DNA of 64,000 nt, from assembly GCA_973895155.1 (NCBI GenBank), contig OZ316892.1, forward strand, positions 17,040,357 to 17,104,356, read 5' to 3'. Both the position numbers and the translations under genes were made by a program. Origin of the DNA: Marsupella aquatica. Its lineage: Eukaryota > Plantae > Marchantiophyta. This document shows positions 28,095 through 54,100 of the stretch, in pieces (the stretch's first letter is position 1; the number at the start of each line of letters is the position of its first letter). The notes beneath the pieces were generated by a model that saw nothing but the letters and a program-made list of their open reading frames with translations, searched no databases and was not told the origin of the DNA.

Positions 28095-31080
28095 TTTCTT
28101 CCTCCGTGTCTATCTCCACCCTTTTCCTTTCCACTCCAACTACAAACTTGTTCCTATTTCGCAAAAAAAATTGTATTACTATTTTGCCACTCCTTCGATT
28201 CTTTCTCTACGAGCCATCTCTAATTCTCTATAGCCTACCCATCCGTTCCTCCTCCTTCAATTCTGACCTCCGTTCTCAACCCCCAACCCCCGGGTTACTT
28301 TCCTACGTCTTTCCAGAATTCAATCAAGCTCTCATGTTTCGTACTGAACCCAAATCGCTCGTCAGAATGACTGACTTTCCAATTTAGCTAAAGCCTCCTT
28401 TTTTTTCCTAACTCTCTCCGCCCAAAAATCCTGCTCGCTCTGTGTCCTACTTGCCTCTGTCTGGAGTTCACTAATTTCACACTCGAATGTCCAAAATGTC
28501 TCTCAAGTGCCCCCGCTCTCGTTGTCGAATTGTAAAGTACCGTATTCCGAAAACTCACTAAGAGCCCTCGCTCTCTCACTCGCTCTCACTCCGCCATCTC
28601 TCACCTAAATTTTGTAGATCTGCTAATACTTATGAGCCCATCACTCCCGCATTCTCCATCTTTAAGAAAGTCTGTCAGCGCAACCCTGGGCCCACGAGAG
28701 TGAGGGTGTGAAGCGGAGCTCGGTCCAGCTTCGCCCAACTGACCATGTAGGACAGCAGATGGCCAGATGCTGAACCCAGCGACTGTAGCTGATGAGGTCA
28801 AGTACCTTCTCTTCTGGCTGGGATCTTCTGTTGTTGTGCAATTGAATACTGGTGGCAACATGGCAGTCTTGCTTCCTGTCAGGTGTCTCTCGGCCATCCA
28901 CACCCATTCACAGTCATGAGTTTATCCCAATAAAATGATAAAATACTCGCTGTATAGCTGATATGCAATCCAAAAGGCGATGGCTGCTAAGTTCTGACTC
29001 TCTCACAGACCACTTGTACTTTGTGGCCCTTTTCGCAGTAAAGTTGGCTGTCGTTGGATCCCTTTCCACCGACATCCATTTCACCTCCCGCAGGAACCAG
29101 AGCCTACAGAGCCCACAGGCACAATGCGGAGTATCTCAGTGGGCGGGTCCAAACGAGCCTAAATTTTTTTTTTAAATTGCCTTGAAACCAAATGCTAACG
29201 CAGATGCAGCTCCCTAGGATAGCCCACAAGGGGTCATACCCGGGACCCAAACTGCAGTAGGAGGGAGGGAGAGAGAGAGGGGGTTGAACCAGAGTCCCAA
29301 AATGGGCTAGCCAGCGCTGACCAGAAACCCGGACTTGCACCACATAGTACACACATACACACTCCACAACCCTTCCATATCACCATATTAGAATATTGGA
29401 TGGGGGGCTCTGATTCATTTCTTACCCCCGAGATTTATGGATGATCAGATGTTTACTAAATGCGTCTGTAGCTAGAGTGAAGCTGGCTAATAGCAGATAG
29501 AAATACACCCTCGCGACTTCAGCCAAAGTCATAAGAAAGATGGAATCTACCAAATTTCATTCATAGAAAAAATGCTCATCGAGACTCCACGCGGACAGTG
29601 CATAATGTGTGTCCACTAGTTAGAACATCTCCACCAGTAGCGACTGCAGTAACACTAACGCCAAATAGGGTGAAAAGGGGCCCTCCTTGGTTGACTTAAT
29701 CTTTGTGGTAGGTAACTTCTTTTATTTTTCTTAAACCACTAATCACTGTATTAAATACTCCGGGTGACCCGGAGTAGTCACTCCCAAAACGCGATTGTGG
29801 TGTCCGCGGACGAGCGCACTTCCGCAGCCCTCCGATCGGGAGCCCGATCATTTTCGTCCGTTCGTCAAATGAGCCAATCTATGGCTCAAAATGCAGGTCT
29901 CTCCTAGATCTACGTCTCAAGAAAAACCAGATCTTGAAAGTGAAAATGAGTGAGAAAAATGAAAAAAAACTATCCAAGCAATGTGATTGGTGGAGGCCCA
30001 AAAATTTGAAATTCGAATTTTTGGGCAGGTCGGGCAGGGACAGGTGGCCCGGAGTACTATCGGGCGACCGGGGGAAGAAACCTGTGCGGGCATCCGCCCA
30101 TAGCAGGTCCAACAAGAGCCTCGCCTGGGCCGGTTAGGATTGCTATCTTTCGGATGTCTTTATCCATAGTTGATAGTAACTATGCTCTGAAGAGTCCTCT
30201 TGATTCACTGGTTAGTGCTTCTGCCTCCCAAGCAGCAGGTTTGAAGTTCAAATCCTGGTGTGGAAACCGTGCATGTTTTGCAACTGTGATTGCTCTCCCT
30301 ATTGGGGGTGCCAAAATAGAGCCAAAACAGATAAAACAGCCGCCACCTCAAGGTCTTCCTACGGTTTCAGGTAGGTGTACGTACCAGGCAGTGGGGAGGA
30401 GGGGCATGAGGGCAAAAGGGGCAATGTGGGTACACAATGTCTCATTTGCAAATTGACTTCCCAAGGTACTTTTTCTTTTCTCTTCTCTTTCCCTTTGGAT
30501 TTGCCCATTCATTTATTTTTGTCAATTTATTTTTTGTTTTACCGGGTTTGGCTTGGCATCCGGTCTCTGTTGTCGTTAGGGGTATTTTCTTAGAGGTTAG
30601 GGTTAGGGTTTGGGTTTAGGGTAGGGTTCTATGAGCACCGGGGGTCAGCCCCCAGATCTTCCAGATGGGAGGCGGAAACGTCGCCCAAGGGGAGGGGGTC
30701 CACCTAGACAGCGTTATCCGAGTGATGATATAGATTACAAGAAGAGACGGAGACCGGATGCCAAGCCAGAAATCCGGGTCCCACTTCAACGGTGGGATGA
30801 GTGGGAGGACCTCCGAGGCTTGCTTGGACCAGACACAACACACTCTACCGTTGTGACATGGCTGCTCGATCGAGTGCGACCTGTGGTTCAAGAGCTTCGG
30901 GCATGGCGAGAAGCGGAGGCAGCTCAAATTCCGCCTGAGGCAGTACCATCGCCCACCGCCCAGCAGGATCCAGGTCAGCCTTCACGACCATATCAGGTGC
31001 GGACACTCTCTCAATTACTCATTTATAGTTATTAGTTCCATGTACTCATAGTTTTGACATATATATAGCTTATCTAACTT

Positions 31081-31290
31081 ATATAACTTATCTAATATAA
31101 TACCCTAAACCAAACCATGAAATTAGGGTACACCTTATAACCTATATTTAGGGCACACATATATAACTTATCTAATATAATACCCTAAACTAAACCATGA
31201 AATTAGGGTACACCTTATAACCTATATTTAGGGCACACATATATAACTTATCTAATATAATACCCTAAACCAAACCATAAAATTAGGGTC
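31081..31290. repeat. 80-bp tandem repeat (~2.6 copies) with telomere-like motifs, in a Kolobok intron
   Basis: ATATAACTTATCTAATATAATACCCTAAAC...TTAGGGTACACC...TTAGGGCACACAT repeated. A telomere-like TTAGGG/TTTAGGG run also lies at ~30597-30627, just before the ATG. Confidence 0.85.
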
Positions 31291-32180
31291 ACTACAATTA
31301 GGTTACACAGATTATAACCCATAAGATTATCATACGTAATGCCAAACACTATTCTAAACTATGATTTTATTTATTGGGTCATGTTTAGGGTTTGGATTAC
31401 CATAGAACTGTGTCATGACACTTCCCAGAATAAAAATGTATTATTTTCAAAAGTTCTTGTATCATCTATGATTCCAATAACATTGTCCAGGATGCTACGG
31501 AGTCACATGTGTTGGATGATATTCTCTTGGAGGAGGACATTGCTAAGCAAACACGATTTCGGACCGAACGAGAACTATTTCCTCTAAACGAGAAGTATAT
31601 TTTTATTTTCCACCGAATCTCGCGAAATCGGCAGTTTTTTTCATCAAGAACGCATTTTTGGGGAAATAATGTAATTCGTATCGGAGTTCGGATTGAAACA
31701 GCAAATTTAATAATGATCAAAACCAATGAAATTCATGCTAACAAACATTCATATTATCAAGGAACAATTAGATCTTAAAAACTTTCTCCTCGACCTCATA
31801 TTCACGCTCTCCAAAGATATATGAAAGGTCTTATCTATAAATCCATATCCACGTTTTGAGCCAAGTGCGATAACTGTATCGGACTCCGGATTTGAGCCAC
31901 GAAAACTTCGACCCAATCTCAGGTTTCTCAGTTTTTGGATATTTACCAAAAATATTTTACATCACAGTCGATAAGAATTACTGCACGGTTCGTCAAATTT
32001 ACCTTGCAGTTACCTCCGCAATTGACCAGTTACCTCCGCAAGTGACCATAGTCAACATGCCATTCTTTCAACAGCAATGCGCAGTCCGATAAAATTATCG
32101 GGAAAACTACGGGCGACAAAAATACTAGTCGACAATACTAAGATCCTTCGGTTCATCGGTTAAATTTCAAAATTCCTATC

Positions 32181-32383
32181 CATATGAAGAAAACTCTTCG
32201 CAATACCAACATCAGATAAATTTAGCGCTTCAATTTCAAAATTGCAACTTCCATATGAAGGAACCACTTTTGCAATACCAACATCAGATAAATTTATCGC
32301 TTCAATTTCAAATTGCAACTTCCATATGAAGGAACCACTTTTGCAATACCAACATCAAATAAATTTATCGCTTCAATTTCAAA
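32181..32383. repeat. ~72-bp tandem repeat x3, each unit carrying a variant of the GATAAATTTATCG palindrome
   Basis: CATATGAAG(G/A)AA...GCAATACCAACATCA(G/A)ATAAATTTA(T/G)CGCTTCAATTTCAAAA three times, upstream of the transposase. Confidence 0.85.
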
Positions 32384-32518
32384 ACTATATAATTTTGCCA
32401 CGATGCACGTGTGAGAATGAAATTGGAAATCCAAGAAATATACCCTTTTCTGCTATTTTGTCGTTTAGGGTGACAGCCAATCAAAAGTGGACACGTGGGC
32501 CAACCCCTCAACAGACAC

Positions 32519-32529
32519 TATAAAAGGGC
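32519..32529 (+). promoter_or_regulatory. Putative TATA box of the nested transposase gene
   Basis: CTATAAAAGGG lies 110-150 bp upstream of the in-frame ATGs and is preceded by a G-box (CACGTG) at ~32492. Confidence 0.4.
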
Positions 32530-32639
32530 CACCGCCGATAAGTTTTTGGCGTCATTATCGAGAGTAGAGTTTTGGGAGTTGTGTTCTTGGAGCAACATTC
32601 TGTCCGTTGAGCCTTTCGTTTTCCCTGATTGTGGGAGGA

Positions 32640-35600
32640 ATGCAAAGCCCCATAGTGTCTCCGATAGCCATGTCTCAATCAGACACAGATTCACCTTCCA
32701 GTTCAGTTGAATCATCTCCTAATCTTGTCGCTCGCTGTTTGCCAAGTCGCATACTTAAAGCTCTACCTCTCTCACAGCAAATAGTGCCCAAAATCTCTGA
32801 CTCAGATTCTGATGCAAGTTCTGGTCCTGAGCCTAGTGCTTACTATGTGTCGCCTAGTAAACCTGAGAAGCGTCATCTCTTGAGCGTTCCATCGCCAAGA
32901 AATGAGAAACTTTCAATCCCAGGTTTAGGTCCGAGACGTCGCTTCAGGCCATCCATCCCGGGTTATGGAGAGGGTATCCGGCGACCGATACGCGTATCGC
33001 AGTCGACATTCAAATCGCCACATTCAACACAAGTTCAACGACGGATCTTTAAGTCTCCGGGTGAGGATCGGGACACAAAAATACAAAGACCGATATGGCG
33101 ATCGGTCTTTGCATTGCCTGGACTGGATATGCGAGCAAGCGAGGGAATCAGACTGCGAAGTCCAGACTCGGCCCTTTCTCGAATGGTCCGTGGGAATCAT
33201 GGTGAACAAGTGCTCAATTTTCCAGCAGCTCGCGGAGTCATTGGGACTGCACGTGCGAATCCAGAATCTCCAATTTCTCAAGGGCGGACTGTCATTGGTT
33301 CCAGGCTCCAAGTATCGAGGAGAGGTCTTAGTGGCGTTCGGGTTATGTATAGAGAGCCACGGAGTCCAATTGTGTTTTCAGATGAGTTGAGTGCATCGGA
33401 GGACGAAGATGAGGAAGGAGATAGAGAATCCGATATAATAGCACAAGTTGTGTTTGAATGTTTAGAAGGAGCTGTCGAAGAGAATAGCTATAGTCGTCTA
33501 TTCAGTGCCCCTCTAAATGCGTCAAGGAGATCTATAGAGGATGGTAGCTCAGCAGAGAGTGATGCATCTATTCGCGAGGCACCTGAAGGACCCAAAAATG
33601 CCAATGTTATGAACGGATTTCAGGTTGTAGAGAAGTCAAATGAGCCTAGTAAAAAAGATAGGGACCGAATTACTAGGAAAGACAATGTGATAAATGACAA
33701 ATTGAATAGAAACAAAATGAGAGAAATTCATAAGTATTCGTGTTGTGATAATTACTGTCTGCGGAATTTGGGTCTGCTAGCCGTGACGAAACAACGCACT
33801 TATTACTATGGGCTATCCTACCCAGAGAAGAATGTCCTTCTGAGAGGATGTGTGAAGGGTGGGCATGCTGGTGCAAGTGGTTACTTAGTTAGCGGTAGAT
33901 CCTTTTGTCGAAGTGGTTTTAAGAAATTATTTTCATTGGGAAATAATCGTCTCCAAAAAATCTCGCAGAACATGTTTTCTCGGATACAGATCGGTACAGT
34001 TTGTCGAGAAAAATCACCCGCACATCTTGGTCTCGTCCAATGGCTGGATGATTTTTTTCCACAAATGTCGAGAGTCTCCCCAACAAGGATATCTTTCATT
34101 TACCTGACAATTGGATAAAAACAGAAGTTTTTGATGCCTTCCAGTCCGAAACTCTAATGCGCCAAGAACAAGGCATGACATATTCGTGGTTTGTTCGCAT
34201 TTGGAACAAGGAGTTTCCTCGCGTGCGCATCCCCAAAAGGAGCCATTTCTCCACCTGCACCCCGTGTATTGAATTCAAAGCACTCCGTGACAAGGCAACA
34301 CTCGAAGCAGAAAAGAGTAAGTTTCTAAACCTGTGTGTTACTCTCGATAATTTTATCGGGTTGAGTATTCATGTGCTTCTTCTTTGGCCATGTGAGTGAA
34401 TATATCGTTTGAACAGTTTGAATACTGAACCTGATAAATTTATCGCTGTCACAGTTTTTCATTACGGTCTTGTGTTTGAATACTGAACCCGATAAATTTA
34501 TCGTTGTCAGGGTTTATCATTACGGTCTCGTGTTTGAATACTGAACCCGATAAATTTATCGCTGTCAGGGTTCAACATTGCGATTATCATGTTTTGTCCT
34601 AAACATTTTTATTATTGTAGGAAAATTCTCAACATTGCTAAACGAGCATCGGAAGGCACAAGCAGTCGAGAGGGAGAAGTTAGCAAAGCACCGGAGCAAA
34701 TGTTACAAGAGTCCGGAGAAATATTTGGGCATTCGTATTGATGGAATGGATCAAAAGAAGACAGAATTACCTCATTTCATTCGGTGTCCGAAGAATATGG
34801 ATGAAAAGTATTTCATCCCCGTACACGTAGTGGGTTGTTTGATCTTCAACAAACAATTAAGTTCAAATGTTTTTTTGAACTATCCAAATATTCACAATGA
34901 TAGCAACCTGACCATCCACGTTATCCAGCATATTCTGAATACCTGGGAAGGTCTGCTCCCTCCAGTGCTTTACCTCCAGCTTGATAACATAACTCGGGAA
35001 AACAAGAATAAATATCTTATGGCATATTTGAATATGTTGGTGGAGATAGGTGTTTTCCAGAAAATAAAGGTTGGTTTCCTATTGGTGGGGCACACCCATG
35101 ATCAAATTGATCAAATGTTTAGCAAGTTTTCTTCAAAATTGAACAAGCGGAAAGCTTTCCGGTTGGACACTCTTTCAGCAATCATAGAGGTATCCTACAA
35201 TCCTACGGCAAAGATATTTTTCGTCGACGAGGTTGCCGATTTCAAGAAATTTGTGTCAGACAAGGATCAAGCAAATGACAAGGATATGGATGGTCAGGTT
35301 CTACGTACTCTCCACGGCATAAGTGCTCAAAAACAATTTTGGATTACTAGAGTACTCGAAGATGGAAGTGCTCGGTCCGTATTCCATGCCAAACATCTTT
35401 CAACGACAATCGATTGGGGGGAGACGGTGGATTTTGTTCGGTACATTCCATCATCTGGAATGTGGGTCGCACCACAAATGGCATTGAAATCGGCCATGGG
35501 AGCGACAGGAGACAATGAAGAGCAAGAGAATGATGCTGAGGAACAAGATGAGCGGGCGACTCAAAGTTATTTGTCAACTCTTCAAAAATATCGAAGAGCA

Positions 35601-36230
35601 ATTGAAGATGGATTCAATTACTTTGACGACGCAGATCGTCTATGGTGGGGTCGTTTTTTTGACAAACAAAAAGAAGTGATTCAGCACCACCTGAAACCTG
35701 CACAATGGAGTTTTGATTGGAGTTGGCCCAAGGTAAACGTACAGAGAGAACTTCCGAGTAATCCTACGGAAGCAGCAATGGAACCTAGCTTGGTTGATAA
35801 AGTAGCGGGTGTGAGGACAGTCATGTATTCCGGAAGTCGAAGAAAAGTCACGGAAATTGGAGACTTCAAGGATCTAGAGGTGAATACTAAATTTGCAATG
35901 ATATGTGTAGCAGCCCATCAGGATCCCAAGGGAAGACCATTCTGGATGGCAAAAGTGACTGAGATTCTCACAAGAATTAACGACATCCCGGAGCGGATTA
36001 AAATCACTTGGTATGCAATGGATTTGGAGGAAGAGTCTGCAATTGAAGGCAGATATTATCCGGAGAAAGAGGCTTCGTCTAGCAAAGTACTGGAGGATGA
36101 ATTGTCCCTATCAGAAACTGCCGTTTATGCGTATAACTTTGCGTTATTGGCAAATAGTACTCTCCCTATACAAACAAGATGAATCATTCAAAATGCAATG
36201 GAGACTGTAGTCGTTGATAGTCGAAGCTAG
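32640..36230 (+). pseudogene. Sola-like DDD/E transposase (DUF7869-like), one intron, one frameshift, probable late premature stop
   Basis: Long disordered N-terminus, then Cys motifs (CCDNYCL, FCRSGF, FSTCTPC) and a catalytic core IDGMDQ...DSNLTI...LYLQLDNITRENKN...GFLLVGHTHDQIDQMFS. GT-AG intron 34317-34620 joins in frame. A -1 frameshift lies at the T7 run 34052-34058. The TGA at 36180-36182 is probably CGA>TGA, since the frame stays open to 36230. Confidence 0.8.
34414..34572. repeat. 58-bp tandem repeat x3 in the transposase intron, each unit with the 14-bp palindrome
   Basis: GTTTGAATACTGAACC(C/T)GATAAATTTATCG(C/T)TGTCA repeated with a 58-bp period. Confidence 0.9.
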
Positions 36231-36557
36231 TTTCAGGTTTAAGTTATAATGGTTATCGTTCCCATGAATATGTACAGTGGTTATCGTTCTGGGACTATGT
36301 ACTCCGCAGCTATAATGATATCTTTTTTTTAAATAATTGCAATGACAAACCAATTAGAGAATACAATGTTGTCCGATAAGATTATCGACAACTCCATTCC
36401 CCCAGCAAGAACACCGTGACAGTCCGATATATGCAAAGTCCGATAAATTTATCGCATTAATAAATGTGACAAAGGTTCTTCCTCATGGAATACAGAAGTC
36501 GATAAATTTATCGACAACTTCATTGGTGATTGACACTATCCTAACGAGCACACGCAA

Positions 36558-39500
36558 CTAATCTAATAACATGTTGTTGAGATCATCCTCATTTGGTGTT
36601 CTGGGAGGCTCTTCCTCAGTTTCTTCTTGTTCCTCTTCGGTCTCCTTCATGACCTCAACTACGTAAGTCGATGTCCCGAGTACACCCAATTGGCCTGCAA
36701 TTGGTGGTTGAATCTCATGACCTTCAACGCCGTGCCCTTCAATCTGGGATTCTTCATATAAATTCCAGTTTGACTCCAGAATCATGATCCGGGATTTTAC
36801 AAAACCAATCTGCGTAGAACTCTTATCAACAGCACAACCCTGGCGAGAATTGAGGAGCGTAGCAGCTAATGTCGATCCGGTTCCACAACAAAGATCAATA
36901 ACCCAATCCTCTTTCTCAGAGAAATGGGAAACAAACCAAGCCCCTAAACCAACAGGCTTCTGATATGGGTTCACAACAAATCCCAACGGATCAACGGACT
37001 TCTTGGTTACACATGGAACCTTGATGATATTGACGCGAGACTCATCCACTTGGAAATTGTACATGTTCATGTTCCGAATGCCTTCCTCGCTATAGAAACC
37101 TATCGACCAGTTCTCAAAACCCCATGCCAATCGAGCTCCAGCGGGACGCTCATGAATGTTAGTCTTCTCCCAGATTCTCGCCTCGACCCCACAGTTGCAT
37201 ACACTCTCCAGTGCAGACATCACCATATGCGTTTGTTGTAGTGAATGGATCACAACAAACCTCCACTGCTTAACGGTCGTCATCTTTGAGAAACTTGTCA
37301 ACATGTCTAAAATGTCCTTTTCTGTGAAGGCCACTTCATCAAACTCCAAACCAAGAGCATTAAAACCATACGGAATATCCGCAACCGCAAGGGTGTAAGC
37401 CCTTGGCTGAACAAAAGAATCCAAAATTCGAACATCACCAACATGGAGATAGTAGGGAAAAGAATCCCCGTCTGCATTTTTCCATGTTTGTTCAAACGCT
37501 TCTGCTGTGCCCTCGCCTAAGGACCTCAGCCGATTGTACTTATCGATTGCAGCAAGCACAAAATTCTTAAACACATAAGGGATTTCAGCTGAGGGAACAA
37601 TAACCTCCCCCACAGAATTATAAGTGACAGCCGGAACCACTTTGCTTTTCCTTTTTGAATTAATCTTCAGCTGTAAGAATGTCAGACACATCTACAGTTA
37701 GAATAGCGTGAGATGAATGCTAAAGCCAATAAAAATCTCGCGATGGAGCACGCTAGCCAATAGATGGAATCGCTTAGAAACCAACAAAGGAATGCTAAAG
37801 CCAATAAAAATCTCGCGATGGAGCACGCTAGCTGATAGATGCAATCGCTTAGAAACCAACAAAGGAATGCTAAAGCCGATAAAAATCTCGCGATAGAGCA
37901 TGCTGTGAGAGGAATGCTTACCGCGTCACTCAATTTCTCCGCCCATATGCCAAGGACCGAGATATCTGTTTCATTGGGAAACATTTCTCTGCATGTTGCC
38001 CAATCTGGCTGACCAGATATCTGCAAAAATAGTTTCTTCACCTTGGCAAGCTTTTTCAACTTCTCACCTTCCTTGTGCATTTGATCCAAAGTGATCACCT
38101 TCCCGATAACCCTATTCAAGAGACGCTTGACATGCTCCTTATTTGACAGTCCTTGGAGACCTCGAAATGAATTTAAGTTGAGGTCACCAGCAAGTTTATT
38201 CATTTTAATCTCCCTTACCGTCAAAGGTTTTACCTTTCCCTTTGCGTTCGTCGTTGCCACAATTTTTTTGGGTTGTCCTAAGACAATACCTTTCTCCCAC
38301 ATCTGGAAAATCTGCTCCTGAAGATCCCAAATTTCACCTGTTCGGAAAGCAATTTGGAAAGCCGGATCATGTTTGGCCATGGAGTCACGAACTCCTGGCG
38401 TGTACTCCATCATGCATTCTTGACAACATGCTTCGCGGATATCTTTAGTCGAGCCCACACCCATTTCAAGGAAAATATTGTGACAAGCGCGAACTTGGTC
38501 AATTTTAGTCATGTTCTTTCGATACTCCTGGTCATAGTTATGCTGGAAGCCTAACTTTCGGACCTCGGATCTCGTAAGCCCAGCATAAACCCAAGCTTCC
38601 AGCTCACCATATATTTGCTTCCCGTACATTTTAAACAACTCGGACTTTGCCCGAGCACCATGATTCCCTCCAATAATTCTATACTTCCATACCCTTGACT
38701 TCAGGATGTCCCAATCTGCGGTTGTGGGACAATCCTTCGGATCCACACACAGCACGAACGGGGCACTAAAGTTGGTGGGGTTTTTCATGAGAAGTATCTT
38801 GATATTTTCCACATGCAATCTATCCACTGGTCTAATCAAAGTTGTCAAATCCCCCTCCTCATCAAATATGAGATTGTCGACACGCAGAAGCACAGTTGTC
38901 CTTTGCACCCTTCGTTGCATCAGAAGACTGAGCTCTGCCTTGATCGCGTCCGTCTCATACATCAAAAGAGCCGTCTCCTCCTCCTGATCAACCTACAAAA
39001 GCGTTGCAAATTCAATTAAGGAAAGAAACTGCGAGATTTTTATCGGAGTTCGCATTTGTTCAACATAACTCCACAATCCGCAATTCAGGAAATAAACAGC
39101 GATATTTTTATCGGATTTCGTGTTTGTTAAACAGTACAACGATGTAGTACTTACCAATGGCACCGCAGGAACCGCGACTGGAACTGATGGAATTGACGGA
39201 GCTCTATCTACTTCTGCAGCCACCGTCTCAATCCAGCCAGTCCTCTTCCTCTTTGTGCTAAGTCCAGAACCAGATGGCCCGGATCCCTCGGATCCTTTAC
39301 TTTTGCTTGGTTTAACGGATGGTCCTCGATGGTTGCCCCGGCCTCTCCCACTACCGCCAGTTTCCTGGCTCTTCTTCCCACCGTCAGAGGTTCCCGCGGC
39401 ATCTCCCCTGCCGCTACCTCTCCCTTTTCCTTTTCCACTTCCCGAAACCCGACCAGAAGTTGTAGGTTCGTCCACGTCAATATGTGTAGAGGATTGCAAT

Positions 39501-40123
39501 GGTTCTTTTCGCCCCGATATTTTATCGGCATTAGAACCACCGCTGCCACTTGAACCTGGTTTCTTGAAAACAATTTTGCGGATAGGTTTGAACTCTTCAC
39601 CCACAAGTCTCTTGTACTCTGCGTTCACCCTTGGAAGCATGATGGCATCACAATCTTGCACATACTGGCCGATCCAAGCCGAACCCATAACATTCATCTC
39701 TCTTGCTGCCCGAACATCGGCAACAAGGGGATCTTCTGGATAACTGTCCATCGATTTCTCATCAAAGTTATCGAGAGTAACAATGAGAGATGTGAAACCC
39801 TTGCGCCCACACATTGTCAAGAAACTAAGGCCCTCTGTCAACACTTTTCCCTCCCCGTGGCCAACCATGAACTCGACGACGGCAACAGCAATGACAGGGC
39901 CATACGAAACATTAACCTTCGCCGATTTTTGCAACTGAACCCAAAGGATTGGGGTAGCACAGTCTTCGAAACCCGTGGACTGTAATCTGGCGTCATGGAA
40001 GTACCATGACTTCTTGATACACTTGACCTCTTCACAAATATCTTCACTTGTCCAAATTGCATTGGTGAGGCTTGTCATGAGACTTTCTGCCTCAGCAGAT
40101 CCACTCTTTCCACTAGCAGCCAT
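36558..40123 (-). CDS. ParB/Srx-like domain fused to a beta-class N4-cytosine/N6-adenine DNA methyltransferase; 3 exons, ~1050 aa
   Basis: Exons 40123-39155, 38992-37922 and 37670-36558 are joined by phase-0 GT-AG introns (GTAAGT/TTGTAG; GTAAGC/TTACAG) with no stops. Exon 2: IRPVDRLHVENIK..PFVLCVDP..YRIIGGNHGARA..HN (ParB/Srx-like). Exon 3: HVGDV..LAVADIPYG (motif IV) ... YQKPVGL..WFVSHFS....WVIDLCCGTGST..A.....RQGCAVD (motifs X, I, II), the motif order of the N6_N4_Mtase family. Confidence 0.88.
37714..37905. repeat. 75-bp tandem repeat (~2.6 copies) forming most of intron 2 of the ParB-MTase gene
   Basis: GAATGCTAAAGCC(A/G)ATAAAAATCTCGCGAT(G/A)GAGCA repeated; each unit has a degenerate palindrome C(G/A)ATAAAAATCTCG. 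Confidence 0.85.
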
Positions 40124-40343
40124 GGAAAAGTCTGCAAATAAACAAATTCCAATGCAAAGAGCGATAAAATTATCGCCGCCAATCTCACAGCACATGTGGA
40201 CACGACATCTCATCACACAAGGACAAAGAGACCGATAAAATTATCGCAAAAGTGAGCCTTCTTTAAATTGACGGCCGAGTGTACAGGTCGAAGAATCAGC
40301 TACGGAACCCTAAATCCAAAACCTTAACCCCTAAACCTAAACC

Positions 40344-40583
40344 CTAATCATAGTTGAACCTCGCCAGAGCGAAGCGTTCGATCCGCTTCTTGGGCCATTG
40401 GGGAATATGAGTGACGCGATGATCATAAGCCCACAGCCAATGGAAATTAACTTCACCAGTCTCAGGATTCACTACTGCTACTGAATACCGGTGTGACGGA
40501 ATGTCACAACAAGCATTTGTGCAGCATGGACAGATCTCACCATTGGCAAGGACGTTCGTCCACAGGCAACTTACATAGATCAA
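40344..40583 (-). CDS. Small Cys/His-rich cargo ORF; start uncertain, possibly a frameshifted or spliced continuation of the upstream ORF
   Basis: CLW...ICPCCTNACCDIPSH...HWLW; overlaps the stop of ORF 40580-41056 and ends at a telomere-like CCCTAAA tract. Confidence 0.35.
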   Translation of the reverse strand: MIYVSCLWTNVLANGEICPCCTNACCDIPSHRYSVAVVNPETGEVNFHWLWAYDHRVTHIPQWPKKRIERFALARFNYD

Positions 40584-41056
40584 GTTAAAGAGCCCACAGA
40601 CCGGTTGGGGGGGAGTTGACGAATCTTGTATGAATATAGTTTCCCACTAGTGTCAATAAAAAACTCGGTGGCAAGAGGATTGTCCAGCTCGTCAATCACA
40701 TCCTGAATCTCATCGAATGCTCTACGTCTGTTGTCGGCATAGAATTCTGGCTCATAAGCAGGATTGCCCTTCACAACATGACAGCAGTGGAGTATAAAAC
40801 GTCTTACTGCACCGGTTTTCAGAAAGAGTAGGATAACTCTTCTAGAAAATCCAACATATCTATCCCACCGAATATAAATTTCTCCCCCTACCTGATCTAC
40901 GTAGAAGTGAAATGCGTTATGGTAAAACGGTTTTACTACCAGCCTGCATATCTTTAAAATTAGTGACTCATCCAGCCTCCTTAGCTGGTCCAGCATGGCT
41001 CCATTCCCCCATTCTGGAGGATCCGGGAAGGGTACAAAAATGCGTCGCTCGAGCAT
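40580..41056 (-). CDS. Hypothetical transposon cargo protein, 158 aa
   Basis: ATG in GCCATG context just after a CAG acceptor; globular-looking composition; same strand as the other cargo genes. Confidence 0.55.
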   Translation of the reverse strand: MLERRIFVPFPDPPEWGNGAMLDQLRRLDESLILKICRLVVKPFYHNAFHFYVDQVGGEIYIRWDRYVGFSRRVILLFLKTGAVRRFILHCCHVVKGNPAYEPEFYADNRRRAFDEIQDVIDELDNPLATEFFIDTSGKLYSYKIRQLPPNRSVGSLT

Positions 41057-41348
41057 GGCCTGATCACCGAATAGAAATCAGGAATAAATTTTGGAGAACA
41101 TACTAATTACAATTCTACAAGTTTCATCCAACTTTATAGTACCTTGTATAACGGGCTGTGAAGCCAATGCACTTGTCAGCTAATCGTCCGAAGAGGCGCA
41201 AAAAAATACACTCTGGACCACACAACCCGAAGTCAGGGGAGGCAGAGTCAATTATATTCAAAGTGTTTCTTTACAAGCACCCAAAATCGACTAGAGGAAT
41301 GAGGAGTGCGATAAATTTATCGGATGTTCGCTGCAATGCCTCATCCAC

Positions 41349-41897
41349 TCAGACTCGTCCATGCCATGCAAGAATTGTCCGCTTCCCGCTTTCTCCAAGA
41401 TTTATCCAAACTCTACGAAACTGATCTAACTGCTCATACGAAAAGCACCCAAGCATATCTATGGGAGGGAGAAAATGAGTTTCCTCTCGGAAGACCCTAG
41501 CAATATGTAGGTTTGAGAGAAGGTCAGCATTAGGAATGCTTGCGAGCATTTTGTTTATGTCATTGATCTCACGGACTGCATATTTCAATAGCGCCCAAAA
41601 TCGTGTACCAACAACAAGATGGTTCCATTTCTTCGAGGTGGCTCCAAGACAAATGATTGTTCTCATTCGAGTCAGTCGTTCTTCTGGTAAAAGTTTTAGG
41701 TCAAGCCCAAGGTGTTCATCTTGTGTGCAAGACAAGGCTAGGAGGGGCCAAATGTGAGATTCAACGAGTTCATCGGGAAGTCCATTCAACAAACTTCCGC
41801 ATTCCACACCGGGCACTTTTCCTCGAATATATTTCCTACACTCGTGGGCTAAAACGGATCCCATCTTTGCAACGATTAGATTCTCCGATGTAGCCAT
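41349..41897 (-). CDS. F-box-like cargo protein, 182 aa
   Basis: LLNGLPDELVESHIWPLL....ICLGATSKKWNHLV matches the F-box pattern LPDEL...I...L......V.K.W..LV, with an insertion. Confidence 0.65.
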   Translation of the reverse strand: MATSENLIVAKMGSVLAHECRKYIRGKVPGVECGSLLNGLPDELVESHIWPLLALSCTQDEHLGLDLKLLPEERLTRMRTIICLGATSKKWNHLVVGTRFWALLKYAVREINDINKMLASIPNADLLSNLHIARVFREETHFLPPIDMLGCFSYEQLDQFRRVWINLGESGKRTILAWHGRV

Positions 41898-42091
41898 GAA
41901 GCAGAGCTACCAAAACCACCAATAACAATACCTTCAATCACCAGGTGTAACCGAACACATCCACAGTACCAACCTTGCACGACAGTTTAACGATTAGGAC
42001 TCGTGACGTATTATATTCGCTACGCAAGGGTAGGACTTGTTTATTTAAATATGTCCTTCCAAGATGCGCCTCAATGAAAAGGTCGAAACAC

Positions 42092-42421
42092 TCATCGTGA
42101 AAGGTTCACCCAAGGGTCTTCGTTCCAAATCTTACAACAAAAGTGAGCCTGTTTGTGGTACTTGTTGTCAAGACGACGACAACAATAGTTACAAGAAAAC
42201 TCCAAAGAATGTAAACACGCCGTTAACATCAACCTCGAACGAATTGGAACTCCTACATCATTCATTCCGCAGAATTCAATGCGGAGAGGATTCTGCCTAT
42301 CTCCAGGATCAGTACCACCCATCCACAATGCTCCTATACCGATGGGGAGAACTTTGAGTCGCACAAGTCTCTTGTACAACCGGCGTGCACGTTTGACATG
42401 ATTTTCAAGGAAGACAGCCAT
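42092..42421 (-). CDS. Small Cys/His-rich cargo protein, 109 aa
   Basis: ATG-initiated ORF containing ACLHSLEFSCNYCCRR...HKQAHFCCKIW, a possible zinc-binding module. Confidence 0.45.
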   Translation of the reverse strand: MAVFLENHVKRARRLYKRLVRLKVLPIGIGALWMGGTDPGDRQNPLRIEFCGMNDVGVPIRSRLMLTACLHSLEFSCNYCCRRLDNKYHKQAHFCCKIWNEDPWVNLSR

Positions 42422-45400
42422 TTGTCACAATACCTATTGTCCACGGAGTGCAATCGACCTTCCGTTGTGCCTCCTAAACCCGGCAACACTGCGACATCAG
42501 AGATGAAGATGAGTCTCCAAACAAAACAAAGGAAAATGATTCTCACAGGAGGATGCGATAAGTTTATCGCACTCCGCATTCGAATTGAAAATATGACTTC
42601 CTCAGACACCTAAGCCCTGAATTCAATCTTTCACAAAAATGACAACTCCGATAAATTTATCGGATTCTCAATTACTCCTCTTTCCATGAAAGGAATGGAG
42701 ACTCCGATAAATTTATCGGAATGAAGGCAACACCTCTCTAAACACACTGGATCAAATGATTGCAACAGAGGAATGCAAAATGCGATAAATTTATCACAGT
42801 CCGCTCGGATCTAGACATTTTACACTAAATGACTAGTTAGTCTTACATGGAGAACTTGAACAGGAATGGCTGTTCCGATAAATTTATCGGGTTTTCGGTA
42901 GAAAGAGTTCAATCGCTTGGGAGGAATGTAAGACTTGATGGGAGTTTGGTATTCGCTCTCAGTCAGGAGATATTTGCTCTAGCGAAAGCAAACGTTTTAT
43001 GGGCAGCCCGCTCCTCTTTATATAGGAGACGCTCTAAACCATGGTTAATTTCCCCTTAACCATGGTTAAGTTTCCCTTTTACCTGGGTTAGTGCGTGGTC
43101 GTTCCTGGATTACGCGGTTCGGACCAAGTTACTCGCAGTTCGGACTTTTTCACTGACGGAATGTAAAACCCGATGCACGTATCGCTCCCTGCATTCCCAT
43201 GGCGATGCAATGGAGGAAAGTGGCATTTCGGAGAGTTTTTGCCAATTTTATCGGTCATTGCATTGCCTTAGAAAAAAAACGGGATCGGGCTAAACGAGAA
43301 CTCCGACACACTTCTCGGTCGGTCTGAAATCGTGTTAGCAATATGCTTTGGATGCGGAAGATGAAGAATTATATCGCGAAGATGATCCAGATACTCTTGT
43401 GGCTTTAGGAGCAAACATCAATGTGGATGAGGGAGACTTCCAAGTATAAATCCTCTCCTTCCACCACTCTAGTATGCAAAGTTCATTTTTTTATAATTAT
43501 AAACAAAAGAGAAAATGTTTGACCACCAAGTTTGTGGGTTTCTTGTACCAGGAGCCATCCATTGCCCCCGACTCTCAACCTACAGGAGCGGCTCCAACCG
43601 TTGCCCTTTGCCTTCTCTAGTTCCTGACTCTCAGCCTACAAGACCTCCGGACACACAACCGACTCGTAGAGTAGCACCTCGTCTTCCAACTACAGTTGCA
43701 TTTTTTGATCGCAACCTGGTGGCTACTTTTGTCATATACATGGATGTTTGAGGACTCCGAGAGTTGAGCGAGTGACCGAGTTGCATCAACTTTGGTCAAT
43801 TCACATTGGATGTGGGGAGGTTGGTCATGGTTGGACTTATATTACAGGCGAGAATGAGCCTGGGAGGTCTTCTCCTATGATTACCCCCCAGTTGTATCAT
43901 TCCACCCTTTGTGCAGGCCTCACCTATACCTCTTTGGCTGTTGTTGTAGCATACATCGGCTTACATGTTCCTACTGCAGCTCATTGGCACAACTTTCAAA
44001 GTGGTCGTGGACGTCCTCGGGGTGGATGGATAGCAGCTGTAAAACAACAATGGAATGAAAACAAAAGTCATATGTGGCAGCAGCTAAAGGATGACATTAA
44101 GCAGAGCCGAGCAACTAATACTGGTAAGTAATTGATCGTTATAGATCCTACTTGATTTTTTTGGGTACTCAAGGGTTATGCTCTTCTTACCAATTTTTTG
44201 GTTTGATCTGGTTCTCATAGTTTGTATATATGCTTTGTAATGACAGACCCTGGATTAGTGGTGTACTTGGATACTCGATGGGATTCTTCGAGGAGCGGTT
44301 ATCATGGTACCACCTCTCTCCTCAATGTTGAAGATAATAGGGTAATTGAGATGGTTACAATTACCAGGAGAGAATAGAGAAATGCTTGGCACATGGAGGA
44401 CAAGGGTACTCAAAGGGCACTAGATAATTTGAGAGAGGCAGGGATCTTTATCACTGAGGTCATCCATGACGACAAGGCCACTATTGATAACATTGTGGAG
44501 AACATGGGAATGCGGAACCAGAAAGACTTGTGGCATAAGGCCAAAAACCTTATCAAGAAGTTTGTGGAGAAGATGGTGAGTGCCACCTACACTGTGACCA
44601 TTGACATTGATACAGCTGCATCTCGTTCTGAGTTGCAACCAGTTACGGCTAAGAAGTTGCAAGACTGGTTGAAGGCTAGGGGTGTGAGAGGGTACTCTGC
44701 CCTTAGGAAGGAGGCACTTGTCCATAAAGTTGGGGACATGCGTGGGTTGCCACCTGGAGAATTGATACATATTGCAACACGTGGCCTCAAGTACCCAGAG
44801 CTGTCTCAACACAACATTGCCACAAAGTTGAAGACATGGTTCTACGTATGTTGTCGGCGATGTAAGAGCAGGTATGCATAATATTGGATAGGGTGTGAAT
44901 TTTGAGGTTTTACATTTGTAGGTGTACTAAGTGTGGGATGGGTAACTTACATATTATTTCACAAGACTAAGTAATTGGAATGTCCATTATGCAGTGGGGG
45001 AGATGCTGCATCCTTGGCCTTTGAGTTGGGTAACTGTGGTGATCATTGGGCCGGCGATCACAGATTATGTGCGAGACTATCTGATTGACCATGTCAGCAT
45101 CTTGAGGAGCCGGGGGCCATCCAGCTTGACCGTTACTATGAGAATGGTAAAATTTGTGTTGACTTATGTAATTCTGTTGTGAAATATGACTTGGTTAGGT
45201 AAGCAAGATTGCATGTTATGCATGACTTATTATTGACTTTTTTTTGTACATGTAGGTGGCGAGACTCATAAGGCCATGCAAAAGTTTCTGAAAAAATACA
45301 TTACTCCCGAGAAGATGAGGTTTTATACCATGGCCCGGGAGAATTTCATGTCAGAGACTTACCATTCCATGATGGGCAAATATGCGACAAAGCGCATTCA

Positions 45401-48600: not shown

Positions 48601-49381
48601 CAGCTTCAGCAACAAATCGATTCAGTGGCAACAACAACTAGGGGCAGCCGATGCGCAACGAGCATGGGTACACTGTGGCTGGCTATGGCAGCCAAAAGCT
48701 CAAAGGGAGGAGTGCGAGCATGGGCAAGGCGGACAGGGCTATGGCAGCCAAAAGCTTGGAGGGAGGAGTGCGAGAGGAGGCCAGCAGCTCGCAGGAGGCC
48801 AGCAGCTCGTAGGGGTAGCTTTTCGCACTCTAGGGCTGGTGGGAGGGAAGGGGGAGTGGCCCTACTAACCCCGGTTAGTCCCTCGGGTTTGAACGACACT
48901 TTGACCCAACGGGCAAAGTGGCACGAGCGGGGGGCAGGGCTCGGGGTCCTTATATACCCCGAGTTGTGGTTTAATGTCCTTGATGATTTTTTCCTTTGTA
49001 TTTTTCAGGGCATTTTGGGAGCATAACGCCCGGTCAAGGTCTGGATCACATCTTTACAAATATTCTCCTCTACTGAAACTTAGAAAAGATGAAAATCTCT
49101 CAGGCCTTAAAGTAGTAAGGTTGTGCTTCCAGATCATTCTGGGCAATACTGGCCCCTCAAAATGCGAGTTGAAGCTCTCCTTTTGGGGGCATTATATCCC
49201 ATAATGCCCTATGAACAAGACTTTGCCTTACACAAAAAACCCACTCAATTCTACTTACCTATCTCCTTCTGAATGGGGCTTTACAAGAGCCCAGGCCAAT
49301 CCAACTTCTATTGAGAGGATTTCGAGAGGATATCAAACCGTATTTTAAAAAGTGGATCAAGGGCTAATAAATGGTGATAAC

Positions 49382-49716
49382 TGTTAGGTATTGCTCTTAG
49401 TCTTGTGAGCTAATCACAATTAGGCTAACTCAGGTTAGGACTTAGCTAAGGTTAGCGATAGTGTTGTTGTGTATATTGCCAGGGCTGGTGCCAACCCCTG
49501 GTGGAACTAAGGCTCATTGTTACGGAGCTAGTTGAGAGATAGGGAGAGCTTGCGCTGTGAATGCTTGGTATGGCCGGTCGGCCTAGAAAGCAGTAAAGCT
49601 CTTGTGTGTTCCTGTGGTAGCCTCATGTGGAGGTGAACCACGTATCTCTCTGTGTCGACTCTTGTGCGTTGGATGGTTCATGGGCTTGCCGTTGCAAATG
49701 TCGTCTATGCTCATCA
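49382..49716 (+). mobile_element. Solo LTR of the adjacent copia family, opposite orientation
   Basis: TGTTAG...CTCATCA, reverse-complement-similar to the LTRs at 51190 and 57784. Perfect 5-bp TSD ATAAC at 49377-49381 and 49717-49721. Confidence 0.92.
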
Positions 49717-51189
49717 ATAACATGTGTCACAAAATCAAGAATCATAATATGGAGAGATGACATCTTGTTGACTAAACCAGGGAAAGTAAAGCCTGGATGG
49801 ACTGAGGGGTTTGCTGTGAAGTCCCCATTGATTTCCAAAGTTGGGATGGACTGACTCAAAACATCCAAATCTGCCCGGGTAACACTCTTTATAGTTTTGA
49901 GTCATATGTGACTTGTAAGCAGGTTTCCATTAATATGTGTGATGGCAAGTCGCGGCTCATGCAAACTACTTCGGGTGTCCTTCACAAAAGTGAAAACATC
50001 CTCTCTTAAAGTGATAAGTTGGTGCTCATGCCCAAGTATTGAGGGTGTTCTTCATATAAGTGAAGTGTCTGTTGGTAGTTAGTTTGTAATATTTGACCAT
50101 CGTTTCACTCATCAGCAATGGAGCAAATGGTTTCAGAAAAAAAAATAGAATTTTCTCAGGTAATAGATTGAACATAAGAGAACATGCTGGGAAATTTTGA
50201 GTTGAAACATAGATCCAAAAGTTGTCCAAATAAATGCACAAGATTGTTGAAAACTAGCATTTTGGAGTTGATTGAGACACCTAGAAAAACTACTTGGGGA
50301 GTCCTTGGAAAGATAGCCCAACAATGTGTATTTTGGTTGTAAAGTGAAGTAGTATGTATCACAGTCCATGGGGATGGGCAAAACAAACCCTATCCATCAG
50401 GGCTTAACTTTCCTAAACCAAGTGGGATGCCAGACCTTTGATGCTGCTATATCGAGAAGCCGCCTTCCAGTATTTTGTCTTATCCAGATTTTTGTTTTGT
50501 ATTTTTATTTCAATGTGCCTTAACAAGGTGCTTCATTCATATTATTTAGAATTTGGCACCCCTTCAAAGTTTTAGCTATCCTAGAGAATTTCTTTCTACT
50601 AATTTTAGATTTTAAGTGCATCCAATCCCTTTAGCCAGTTTAAATATTTCTACCACTTGAGAGCCCGCTTGAGAATCTTATCATGCGTGAGAGAAAGAAA
50701 TCATTTTGAATAATGTGGACACCTCTTGTTTTCTATGCAAACAAAAAACAGGGATAATGGTAGACTGTGATTCTAAGTGCCAACAGAAAACAGAGAGGGG
50801 GCAAATATGAATGGAAAATAGTAAGGAAACGTTCCTTCTTTCTTTGCAATGTCAGTTTCGGTCATCACCTCTATTTAGATTCAAAGGAAGGGACTCGTAA
50901 TCAGGGTATTTGGGCCAAACTCTCATCCAACTATGCAAACTAGATGCGATTTAGGAAAACTTGAAAACACCTAGGTTGGGCTCAACAAATTTAAGGATTT
51001 AGTCAAGTAGCCACTATGGCGACTGTCCATTGGATGAGCTTAGGAGGGTGGCATGTTAGGAATTGACTCGAGTTCCCAACTTCTCATTAATTTGGCCTTA
51101 CTAGGTTTAGTTACCCTTGGTTACATTAGGATAAGATCTTAGATTAGGCCCACACATCTTGGCCCCCTTTGGGGGGTATAGGTTGGAGG

Positions 51190-54100
51190 TGTTGAGCATA
51201 GATGACATTTGTAACTTATGTTAAGCCCATGAACCATCCAATGCACAATAGTCGATACAGAGAGATACGTGGTTCACCTCCACATGAGGCTACGTCCACG
51301 GGAACACACAAGAGCTTTACTGCACTCTAGGCCGACTGGCCATACCAAGCATCCACAGCACAAGCTCTCCCTATCTCTCAACTAGCTCCGTAACAATGAG
51401 CCTAAGTTCCACCAGGGACTGGCATCAGCCCTGGCTATATGCACAACAGCACTACCGCTAACATTAGCTAAGTCCTAACCCGAGTTAGACTAATTGTGGT
51501 TAGCTCATGAGTCACAAGACTAGAACAATATCTAACAAACTCCCCCTTGACTCTTGTCTTGGGGACTAGACTAAATGCTACCATATGGATTCTTCAGCGG
51601 GAAGTTCTAGACAATCACCAAACCAGGTCTCCCCCTAAAAACCACAAAGGTTAACTAAGGGTTAACTAGAACTAAGCCGTAGCCTAACAAGAATGAGCAA
51701 TCCATATACAAATAATCACACATTGCTAAATAACTCTACTTGCACTACAACTGCAAAACTTGCAAAGTAGCACGGTGTCTTGAGAAACTCTCCAAAGGAA
51801 TCACTTTGGTAAAGTCATCAGCGGGATTGAGCTTTCCATCAATCTTGACTAGCTCAAAAGTTTTATCAGACACTGCTTGCCTGATAAAATGGTACCTGAT
51901 ATCAATGTGCTTCACCCTGCTATCCATCACCTGGTTAGCAGCCAAGTGAAGAGCACCCTGACTATCACAGTTTAGAATCATTTTTCCATGCTCTAAACCC
52001 ATCTTCGCGATCAACTTATCCAACCAAATTGCTTCCTTTGCTGCTTCTGCTGCTGCAACATACTCTGCTTCTGTAGTAGATTGAGAAATGCACTTCTGCA
52101 AGGTAGATTTCTAACTAATATATCCTCCTCCAAGAGTGTATACAAACCCAGTTGGAGACCTCCTTGTATCCAGACAGCCTCCATAGTCAGAATCTACATA
52201 GCCAACTAACGTTCTATCTGATCTGTTATCAAATAGTAATCCATAGTCCTATGTTCCCTTCAGATACCTGAGAATCCACTTCACAGCTTCCCAATGTACC
52301 TTCCCTGGATTTGACATGAATCTGCTAACCTTGCCCATGGCTAGGGCTAAGTCAGGCCTAGTACAAGTCATCAAATACATTAGACTGCCTACTGCCTTCT
52401 CATAAGGAATCTTAGCCATCAGACCTTTCTCCACAGCATCCATAGGAGAGAAGGCCGATGATAACTTGAAATGTGAAGCTAAAGGAACACTCACTGACTT
52501 ACAGTTTTCCATGTTGAATCGTGCAAGTACTTTCCTTTCATATTGGCCTTGACTCAAGCACAACTGTCCAGTATCAGAGTTCCTAAAAATCTCCATCCCT
52601 AAGATCCTCTTGGCCTTACCAAGATCCTTCATCTTGAATTCAGCACTCAATTTCGCCTTGAGACTGTCAACCTCAGATTGATCTTTAACCACAATAAGCA
52701 TGTCATCCACATAGATCACCAGAATGATGAAACCAAATACATCATTCTTGACTAATTTTGTATACACACAAGGATCATACACCATCCTTGTAAAACCTTG
52801 AGCAAGCATGAAAACATCAAACCGCTTGTTCCATTATCTGGGAGACTGCTTCAATCCATACAAGGACTTGAGCAATCTACAAACTAAGTTCTCTTGGCCC
52901 TTCTTCATAAAGCCTAGTGGCTGTCTCATGAAGATCAACTTTTCCAAGTTGCCATAGAGAAAAACAGTAACAATATCCATCTGATCCATCACCAGACCAA
53001 AAAACACAACAAGCTGACACAAGATCCGAATTGTGGAATACTTAGCCACCGGTGAAAAGACCTCATTGTAGTCCACTCCTTTCTCCTGAGTGAACCCCTT
53101 GGCAACAAGCCTTGCCTTGTAGATCTTATCTCCACCCTCTGAAGGACTGTCCTTCAACTTGTAAATCCACTTGCTGTCCACCACTTGCTGACCTTTTGGA
53201 AGCTCCACCAACTCCCATGTCTTGTTGTCACTCAAAGATTGCAACTCCCTCTGCATTGTTGCATTTCACTCATGCTTCTGCTCTGAAGCACAAGCCTCAT
53301 TGTACGAAGAAGGCTCTCCTTCTTCCAAGATCAAAGCCATGTCATCATCATCAGTTGCAATGTCAATATCATCTAGCTTAGATGAGTCTGCCCATTGACC
53401 ATACCTGGTAGGAGCTCTAGTAGAACGACTGGAAGTTCTTCTAGTAGATGACTCAAGTTGATCTGCTGCTGCTAGTCAAATTTGAGGTATCCCAGCAATA
53501 ATCTACTCCTCTTGTTCCATCACAGGAACCAGCTCCAAGCCCAGAGCTTCTCCATCTCTCCTGTCATGAATTGCATCATGACTAGTCTCCCCGTCAACCC
53601 GGTCTGGGATGGGAGATTTCCCCTTGTCAGTATGGAAGTCTTGAGAACTCTCCCCCTCCTTTGATGATCTGGACTCATTAAAGGACACATCTCTACTGAT
53701 AATTAGTTTACAGGTTACTGGATCCCATAACCTATAACCCTTCACACCTTTCTGATAGCCAAGGAAAATACACTTCTTTGACTTGGACTCCAGCTTGGAT
53801 CGAAGTTAGGAAGGTGTAAGCACATAAGCATCACATCCAAAAATCCTCAGATGTGAGTAATCTGCTGGACGCCCGTACCTCATTTCAAATGGCGTCTTGA
53901 ATCCAATAGAACTGGATGGAGAAAAATTTACCAAATAAGCTACAGTGTTGACAGCTTCAGCCCAAAACTCATGTGGTAAGCATGATTGACTCAACATACT
54001 CCTCGAGCGGTCCAATAGTGTTCGGTTGAGTCTCTCAGAAACACCATTCTGCTGAGGAGTATAACTTGTTGTGAGATGGCGGGTAATCCCCTACTCCTTA

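Follow-up and report, generated by a model that had tools for sequence, protein, structure and literature searches.

The transposon Sola1-1_Ec32 of the brown alga Ectocarpus carries a gene encoding a ParB-like domain fused to a DNA methyltransferase (MTase), and for its product a binding to, and modification of, the element that encodes it has been proposed (PMC12477816). In red algae, Plavaka elements contain the accessory genes PAG2 and PAG3, with a ParB-like domain beside inverted-repeat arrays (the Bostrychia preprint, bioRxiv 10.1101/2025.02.11.637652). VANDAL is named in one algal genome paper as the sole proven self-modifying element, and the sites targeted by its VANC proteins occupy introns as well as the non-coding DNA between genes and at the ends, where they have been multiplied by tandem repeats (PMC5735166). 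Fusions of ParB helix-turn-helix (HTH) and MTase domains are also described in chlorophytes and chytrids, as are phage ParB-terminase loci (PMC4738411). Here we analyze a transposon of 11,787 bp, located at positions 31550-43336 of a 64,000-nt stretch of DNA from Marsupella aquatica, the whole of which is called the window hereafter. This element carries a Sola-type transposase gene, a convergent accessory gene for a predicted ParB-MTase fusion and, in its non-coding DNA, many copies of a palindrome whose type changes among related loci together with the ParB sequence.

The closest parallel is Sola1-1_Ec32, which is of Sola1 type, as our element probably is, exceeds 10 kb like it and bears an opposite-strand gene with ParB-like and N4C/N6A MTase parts (PMC12477816). 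The accessory proteins, of 1,104 amino acids (aa) in the alga and a predicted 1,050 aa here, are likened by description. The 4-bp target-site duplication (TSD) and the AAC termini of our element agree with the Ectocarpus entry, in which the TSD is biased to an A end and the termini read AACCG, as compared with AACAC here (PMC12477816). On the other hand, Sola1-1_Ec32 comes from a brown alga and measures 21.5 kb with a terminal inverted repeat (TIR) of 282 bp, whereas our element comes from a land plant and has a TIR of 25 bp; palindromes go unmentioned in the main text on Sola1-1_Ec32, whereas here they are family-specific and extend through all non-coding DNA (PMC12477816). The original prediction knew of no description of the combination in a plant Sola-like element. 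A categorically new system must be rejected, as the same fusion and the same hypothesis were already available for the brown-algal Sola1 (PMC12477816). What we consider new is the land-plant lineage, the probable neighborhood of the corresponding genes in Riccia, and a distinct non-coding palindrome in four of five related loci; in the literature searched, a scope that left aside Repbase, figures and preprint supplements, we found no description of land-plant cases or of family-specific palindromes. The element adds a land-plant representative to a group that has received a few sentences of description so far.

The Plavaka genes PAG2 and PAG3 are similar in having a ParB-like domain, a proposed self-binding and self-modification and an N6A methylase in the cassette. 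They belong to another superfamily, their ParB domain is fused to a 2-oxoglutarate (2OG) oxygenase, the methylase-SET protein is encoded by a separate gene and the repeats form tandem arrays adjoining PAG3 (bioRxiv 10.1101/2025.02.11.637652).

The palindrome CGATAAATTTATCG occurs in the element 8 times without mismatch, 16 times with at most one mismatch, 21 times with at most two and 24 times with at most three. The corresponding numbers for the remaining 52,213 bp of the window are 0, 0, 0 and 4. In 300 dinucleotide shuffles, the mean was 0.05 (maximum 1) at up to two mismatches and 0.72 (maximum 4) at up to three, and chance is ruled out as the origin of the 21 copies. The site is 14-16 bp long, because the flanking base is also symmetric and is mostly C or G. 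All 24 copies lie outside the modelled exons, which make up 54% of the element, in agreement with the claim of about 25 copies in non-coding DNA; two looser matches, limited to the arms, are found inside transposase exon 1. The copies are present in all three introns and between the genes, and several have been multiplied by tandem repeats of 58, 71 and 75 bp. From left to right (positions without strand), six are located 5' of the transposase gene (31868..32549, with starts at 31868, 32087, 32214, 32286, 32357 and 32536, three of them within the 71-bp repeat), four in the transposase intron (34345..34561, three within the 58-bp repeat), three between the convergent stop codons (36374..36513), and three in the accessory-gene introns (37877 in intron 2, 39032 and 39100 in intron 1). 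Two more directly precede the accessory-gene ATG (40162..40246, with starts at 40162 and 40233), one lies between small cargo open reading frames (ORFs) at 41309, and five are found toward the right end (42556..42889).

Such a layout, with a family-specific non-coding motif multiplied by tandem repeats, is that of the VANC targets. VANDAL/VANC and Spm/TnpA of Arabidopsis both rely on short non-coding motifs that are family-specific and diverge with the family (PMC5735166, bioRxiv 10.64898/2026.08.24.746577). Their motifs, however, are of 8-10 bp and are not described as palindromes in these sources, the proteins carry no writer enzyme, and the effect, which was demonstrated experimentally, is a loss of 5-methylcytosine (5mC) (PMC5735166, bioRxiv 10.64898/2026.08.24.746577). 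The element and protein domain assignments differ too, VANC being encoded by a Mutator-like element; this distinction is made by description.

A single-exon scan of metagenomes returned nothing, and relatives were obtained by alignment: among 132 candidate stretches, five metagenome loci (L001-L005) carry a ParB exon that is 49-61% identical. For the MTase exon, longer relatives were absent in a first search and were recovered by a representative search. Relatives with a named source are, for the fusion, proteins of Chara, Riccia, Adiantum and Ginkgo and, for the transposase, of Riccia, Ceratopteris and Adiantum. Taken with the CHG deamination described below, they would indicate a host among the land plants, probably a seed-free one. 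At up to two mismatches, the palindrome of the Marsupella element is absent from all five loci. Four of them carry one of their own, and none is found in L004, a sequence of 1,086 bp that is mostly exon. At the same threshold, a GCGAGAC-NN-GTCTCGC type is present 8 times in L001, 7 times in L003 and 3 times in L005, and a CCGAT-N6-ATCGG (CCGATCC) type 20 times in L002, with zero cross-matches among the three types. All three nevertheless share the frame CGA-N8-TCG, which is counted 24 times in the element, 12, 22, 8 and 4 times in the loci, and 9 times in the 52 kb outside the element; other spacer lengths yield at most 4 sites. In the related loci, 41 of the 46 CGA-N8-TCG sites lie outside matched coding DNA. 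The ParB exons are 80-84% identical within one palindrome type versus 49-66% between types, and the type tracks the ParB clade in the tree, from which L005 was omitted as too short. It had been predicted that the motif would change with the ParB sequence across subfamilies, and the three types do follow the ParB clades. Residue 210 of exon 2 is P in the element and L002, where the sites read CGAT, and H in L001 and L003, where they read CGAG; with four loci only, this position is a candidate specificity residue.

A linkage to the transposase was recovered in relatives as well. A convergent transposase tail is seen in L003 (169 aa) and in L002 (21 aa, up to the contig end). In Riccia sorocarpa, the fusion gene R1sor_010796 (about 25% identity) and the DUF7869 gene R1sor_010795 bear consecutive locus tags, on the basis of which the two are probably neighbors. 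No relatives of the transposase were found in viral contigs or in prokaryotic genome contigs, so that these contigs supplied no Sola without the MTase as a control.

The second exon of the accessory gene was modelled from 34 sequences with a predicted local distance difference test (pLDDT) score of 86, a single-sequence fold (pLDDT 34) having been discarded. Its best Foldseek matches are ParB 6SDK and Noc (E 1.4e-5), and comparison with Caulobacter ParB 7BM8 gives a Z score of 10.8 and a root-mean-square deviation (rmsd) of 2.2 Å over 98 aa; KorB reaches Z 9.1 and sulfiredoxins at most 8.0. The modelled fold thus supports the claimed ParB domain. The structural alignments extend to residue ~315, into the ParB DNA-binding region, with an rmsd of ~9 Å. 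We also obtained a weak profile match to residues 152-192 of 6SDK (E 0.089) and, in the homologue P0155, a match to HTH_ParB (E 0.05). Phage ParB-like proteins match the model too, and no donor can be named; no relatives of this exon were found in viral contigs. ParB and Noc bind palindromes of similar size with 2-fold symmetry, and four residues switch their specificity (PMC7383237). Bacterial ParB/parS and Noc/NBS share with our system an N-terminal fold followed by a helical region, and 14-16-bp palindromes in many copies. They differ from it in that here the arginine patch appears to be replaced, an MTase is fused, no ParA is found and the site is unrelated (PMC7383237, PMC7053999). The search for a ParA partner covered ten element ORFs and detected no such family. 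At the position of the GERRxR patch, the element protein reads GNHGAR, a register set by motif and not by residue-level superposition, and the label of ParB CTPase clamp was rejected since this defining motif appears to be replaced. In the ESM Atlas, the top rank for the ParB exon is held by fungal DUF3723 clusters (0.95, 170 shared features). DUF3723, which we take to be a Starship accessory gene, may itself be ParB-like; no paper combining the terms DUF3723 and ParB was found in the literature searched.

In the third exon, motif IV (DIPY) precedes motif I (DLCCGTGS), which is the order of beta-class amino-MTases. The Pfam family N6_N4_Mtase matches with an E-value of 7.8e-5, below the cut-off. 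The family profile matches M.RsrI (1.5e-17), DpnA (4.9e-17) and CcrM (5.5e-16), and also M.MboIIA; together with the motif order, these matches agree with the beta-class assignment made originally. The profile is weaker with PvuII and N4CMT (~1e-6), which are N4-methylcytosine (4mC) enzymes. Out of 150 matches, motif IV was found in 59 and begins with D in 55 of these. The SPPY of 4mC enzymes is encountered only in P0111 among family members, and DPPY is seen in 8 distant ones, while the D, P and Y of motif IV and the GxG of motif I are retained in the four loci examined. Because N6-methyladenine (6mA) enzymes score better, motif IV is of the D type and 4mC writers have SPPY, we favor 6mA over 4mC as the predicted product. 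The enzyme is fairly likely to be active. Synonymous sites are saturated in the ParB and MTase exons, and both are under purifying selection in all 12 pairs compared (nonsynonymous divergence, dN, 0.15-0.47). A parallel can be drawn with MpDN4MT1 and bdelloid N4CMT, which are also beta-class amino-MTases of bacterial origin in eukaryotes. Unlike the element protein, these are host genes with SPPY that make 4mC, and 'ParB' appears in neither text (bioRxiv 10.1101/2021.02.12.428880, PMC8885841). In Chara, the 1,825-aa model P0007 (GBG86584) contains two ParB-MTase units in tandem.

The accessory gene lies on the minus strand and consists of three open exons (40123-39155, 38992-37922 and 37670-36558) joined at GT-AG junctions in phase 0. 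The splice model is based on exon limits that match in L001-L003, on P0161, where the ParB part and the beginning of the MTase exon are read in a single frame, and on long fusion homologues: the ParB part is present in 11 of the 13 MTase matches of at least 600 aa, with Chara, Ginkgo, Adiantum and Riccia among them. Exon 1 encodes a domain of ~185 aa without assignment and a G/S/K-rich linker; it is 27-32% identical in L001, L002 and L005 and has neither a Pfam family nor a named ESM Atlas match. It is followed by intron 1 (38993..39154), by exon 2 with the ParB-like N-terminal domain (residues ~31-158) and a helical DNA-binding-like region, by intron 2 (37671..37921), which contains the 75-bp tandem repeat, and by exon 3, where the order DIPY, NPYQKP, DLCCGTGS is followed by an acidic tail. 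Four small cargo ORFs are found on the same strand, at 40344-40646, 40580-41077, 41349-41906 and 42092-42424. The third is F-box-like, with a weak match (E 0.064), and the fourth, which is Cys-rich, has a 27% match upstream of the L005 fusion gene (E 6e-5).

The transposase gene occupies 32641..36182 on the plus strand, with exon 1 at ~32641-34316 (start uncertain), an intron at 34317-34620 and exon 2 at 34621-36182, the splice sites being taken from the sequence. Its product matches Pfam DUF7869 (E 2.4e-48). DGMDQ, LQLDN and GHTHDQIDQMF are conserved in 24 aligned proteins, and we take these acidic motifs to be probable Sola1 marks. A frameshift lies in a run of T at 34051. One extra T, which gives the open form, is present there in most of the depth of the public sequencing runs X1 and X2, but not of X4. 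This copy is therefore non-autonomous. The accessory gene, first described as intact, is open in all its exons, whereas the transposase of this copy is frameshifted. In the run X5, the accessory gene has far less depth than the transposase core; since depth cannot rank genes, this was not used.

The clean bounds that had been claimed were all recovered. The left TIR (31550..31574, plus strand) and the right TIR (43312..43336, minus strand) match at 23 of 25 positions and are flanked by the TSD AGCA (31546..31549 and 43337-43340). The window also contains the empty site: at 11025-11028, a second copy of the host repeat shows AGCA only once. Between the two host-repeat copies ~5% of columns are different, and on the left side the likeness covers only ~30 bp because of a further insert upstream. 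This insert of 956 bp (30564-31519) contains an 80-bp tandem repeat and lies directly left of the element; a contig from X4 skips it. The empty joint 31545>43337 was found in three of four public runs (X1, X2 and X4). Read depth is higher on the element than on its flanks and many variant contigs fall on it, which suggests that many copies are present, contig depth giving no copy number. Internally deleted derivatives appear in the public runs as the joints 32545>42540 (X4), which retains only the palindrome-rich ends, and 33067>34304. Short telomere-like TTTAGGG/CCCTAAA runs are present at 30595-30630 and, inside the element, at 40313-40350. A Copia-type retroelement (RVT_2, rve, gag) is located in the region 49381-58127, with 340-bp direct repeats at 51190 and 57784 and an inverted third copy at 49381; the CpG observed/expected (o/e) ratio falls to 0.19 there.

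The sequence gives indirect and mixed clues to methylation. The CpG o/e ratio of the Sola element is 0.87, or 0.81 with the palindromes masked, and it is 0.77-0.86 in four of the five relatives versus 0.37-0.40 in the host repeat. As the ~5% divergence of the host-repeat copies is too small to account for this gap, the copies through which the Sola lineage was propagated seem to have been less methylated. When this copy is compared with the X1 majority, 22 differences are counted in 4,218 bases; among them, C-to-T changes at CG and CHG sites are enriched eightfold, and two adjoin palindromes.

We propose that the accessory ParB-MTase would bind the 14-16-bp palindromes of its own family as a dimer and methylate the surrounding DNA, probably at adenine. 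Methylation would keep the promoters and introns of the element usable in cells making the protein. The many fixed sites, at least one per non-coding stretch, could cover the element without any CTP-driven sliding. Protection would be transient and act in trans, and idle copies such as the frameshifted one would be methylated at 5mC like other repeats. This could be seen as VANC-like targeting joined to a bacterial writer. That the ParB part is the palindrome reader seems likely to us, and the effect would presumably favor expression or transposition. The whole reading, in which the fusion protein binds the palindromes, methylates nearby DNA and helps cognate copies to be expressed or mobilized, we hold to be about evenly balanced between true and false.

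Several observations weigh against this proposal. The transposase is co-inherited with the ParB-MTase and only three palindrome types are known. The CpG contrast is based on few neighboring repeats in one window, and L004 has a CpG o/e ratio of 0.57. Motif IV is DIPY rather than the canonical DPPY. R104 of the GERRxR patch is required for CTP hydrolysis and spreading of ParB (PMC7053999); the equivalent position is occupied in 32 of 34 rows, by G, T, S or C, without a single R. This makes CTP-driven spreading doubtful, we consider sliding of the element ParB domain unlikely, and the parS-style spreading of the original prediction is not supported insofar as the register by motif is right. In addition, C-to-T changes are found in this copy at 2.1% of CG and 1.9% of CHG sites, as compared with 0.24% of those in CHH context (p 1.6e-4). 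Because of this deamination at CG and CHG since it arose, this copy was not durably shielded from 5mC; it was methylated like other repeats, and protection, if any, is transient. A lasting 5mC protection of every copy is thereby ruled out, and the protective role first put forward fails in its durable form. Altogether, the folds, the purifying selection, the transposase linkage and the motif co-variation support the original interpretation, while its novelty, the spreading and the durable protection are unsupported.

One could assume instead that the palindromes are recognized by the transposase, either to pair the ends or as a sequence-specific regulator, the ParB-MTase being recruited or acting independently of them. 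Co-inheritance confounds the co-variation of palindrome and ParB, which would hold for either reader. Moreover, 11 of the 24 sites are at most 1 kb away from an element end, the deleted derivative 32545>42540 keeps both palindrome-rich ends, and clusters of family-specific motifs are bound by transposases and by Spm TnpA, which activate cognate copies (bioRxiv 10.64898/2026.08.24.746577). Yet the other 13 sites are more than 2 kb inside, including those in both accessory-gene introns and upstream of the ATG, and the TIR contains no full palindrome. The fixed 2-fold geometry fits a dimer of the ParB/Noc type (PMC7383237), and the inverted-repeat arrays of red algae adjoin ParB-domain genes on the unrelated Plavaka (bioRxiv 10.1101/2025.02.11.637652). 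We regard a transposase reader as rather unlikely. The neutral view, that the palindromes merely arose as tandem repeats slipped and that the gene is carried along passively, could invoke the sites inside the 58-, 71- and 75-bp repeats. It is largely refuted, and in our opinion very improbable, since sites recur amid unrelated flanks in every non-coding stretch and families with saturated synonymous sites still share the CGA-N8-TCG frame.

The fusion protein might also read the palindromes and restrain the element, as a self-encoded repressor or copy-number brake. Parallels exist in repression by KorB and in the Dam control of IS10. One of the structural matches is KorB, each presumed promoter has sites beside it (31868-32536; 40162 and 40233) and this copy is unprotected from 5mC. 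The lineage and its relatives are rich in CpG compared with neighboring repeats, which speaks against a brake, as does a layout that matches that of VANC targets (PMC5735166), and we judge it distinctly unlikely. Finally, the MTase half could be a catalytically silent DNA-binding module, binding alone being enough to exclude nucleosomes or host methylases or to scaffold an 11.8-kb transpososome. DIPY and DLCCGTGS are indeed non-canonical, the Pfam score of this copy is below the cut-off, and MTase domains borne by DIRS1 are thought to be inactive (PMC4738411). The motif residues kept in all four loci and in distant members, 8 of them with DPPY, and purifying selection on the domain speak against this; a silent enzyme is improbable in our view.

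Returning to the reading in which the fusion protein binds and marks its own element, the idea that ParB-methylase accessory proteins bind and mark the transposon encoding them is put forward in two algal genome papers as a proposal. Our finding supplies a defined site of 14-16 bp, three natural protein-site pairs and, from a lineage of land plants, a gene with an open frame. Since the palindrome types share CGA-N8-TCG and follow the ParB clades, cognate and non-cognate binding can be compared, and this family-specific site code makes the self-marking idea directly testable. A tentative generalization, in our view less likely than not, would be that plant Sola transposons use a diversifying code of bacterial style, in which the ParB of each family reads its own CGA-N8-TCG variant and the fused enzyme writes 6mA over the element as a private self mark opposing host silencing by 5mC. 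If true, this would be a transposon-owned epigenetic read-write system extending from charophytes to ferns and Ginkgo, and its natural protein-site pairs could serve in plants as compact, orthogonal tools for targeted DNA methylation. Transposons would then write their own non-5mC mark, and some of the 6mA or 4mC of plants would be transposon-made.

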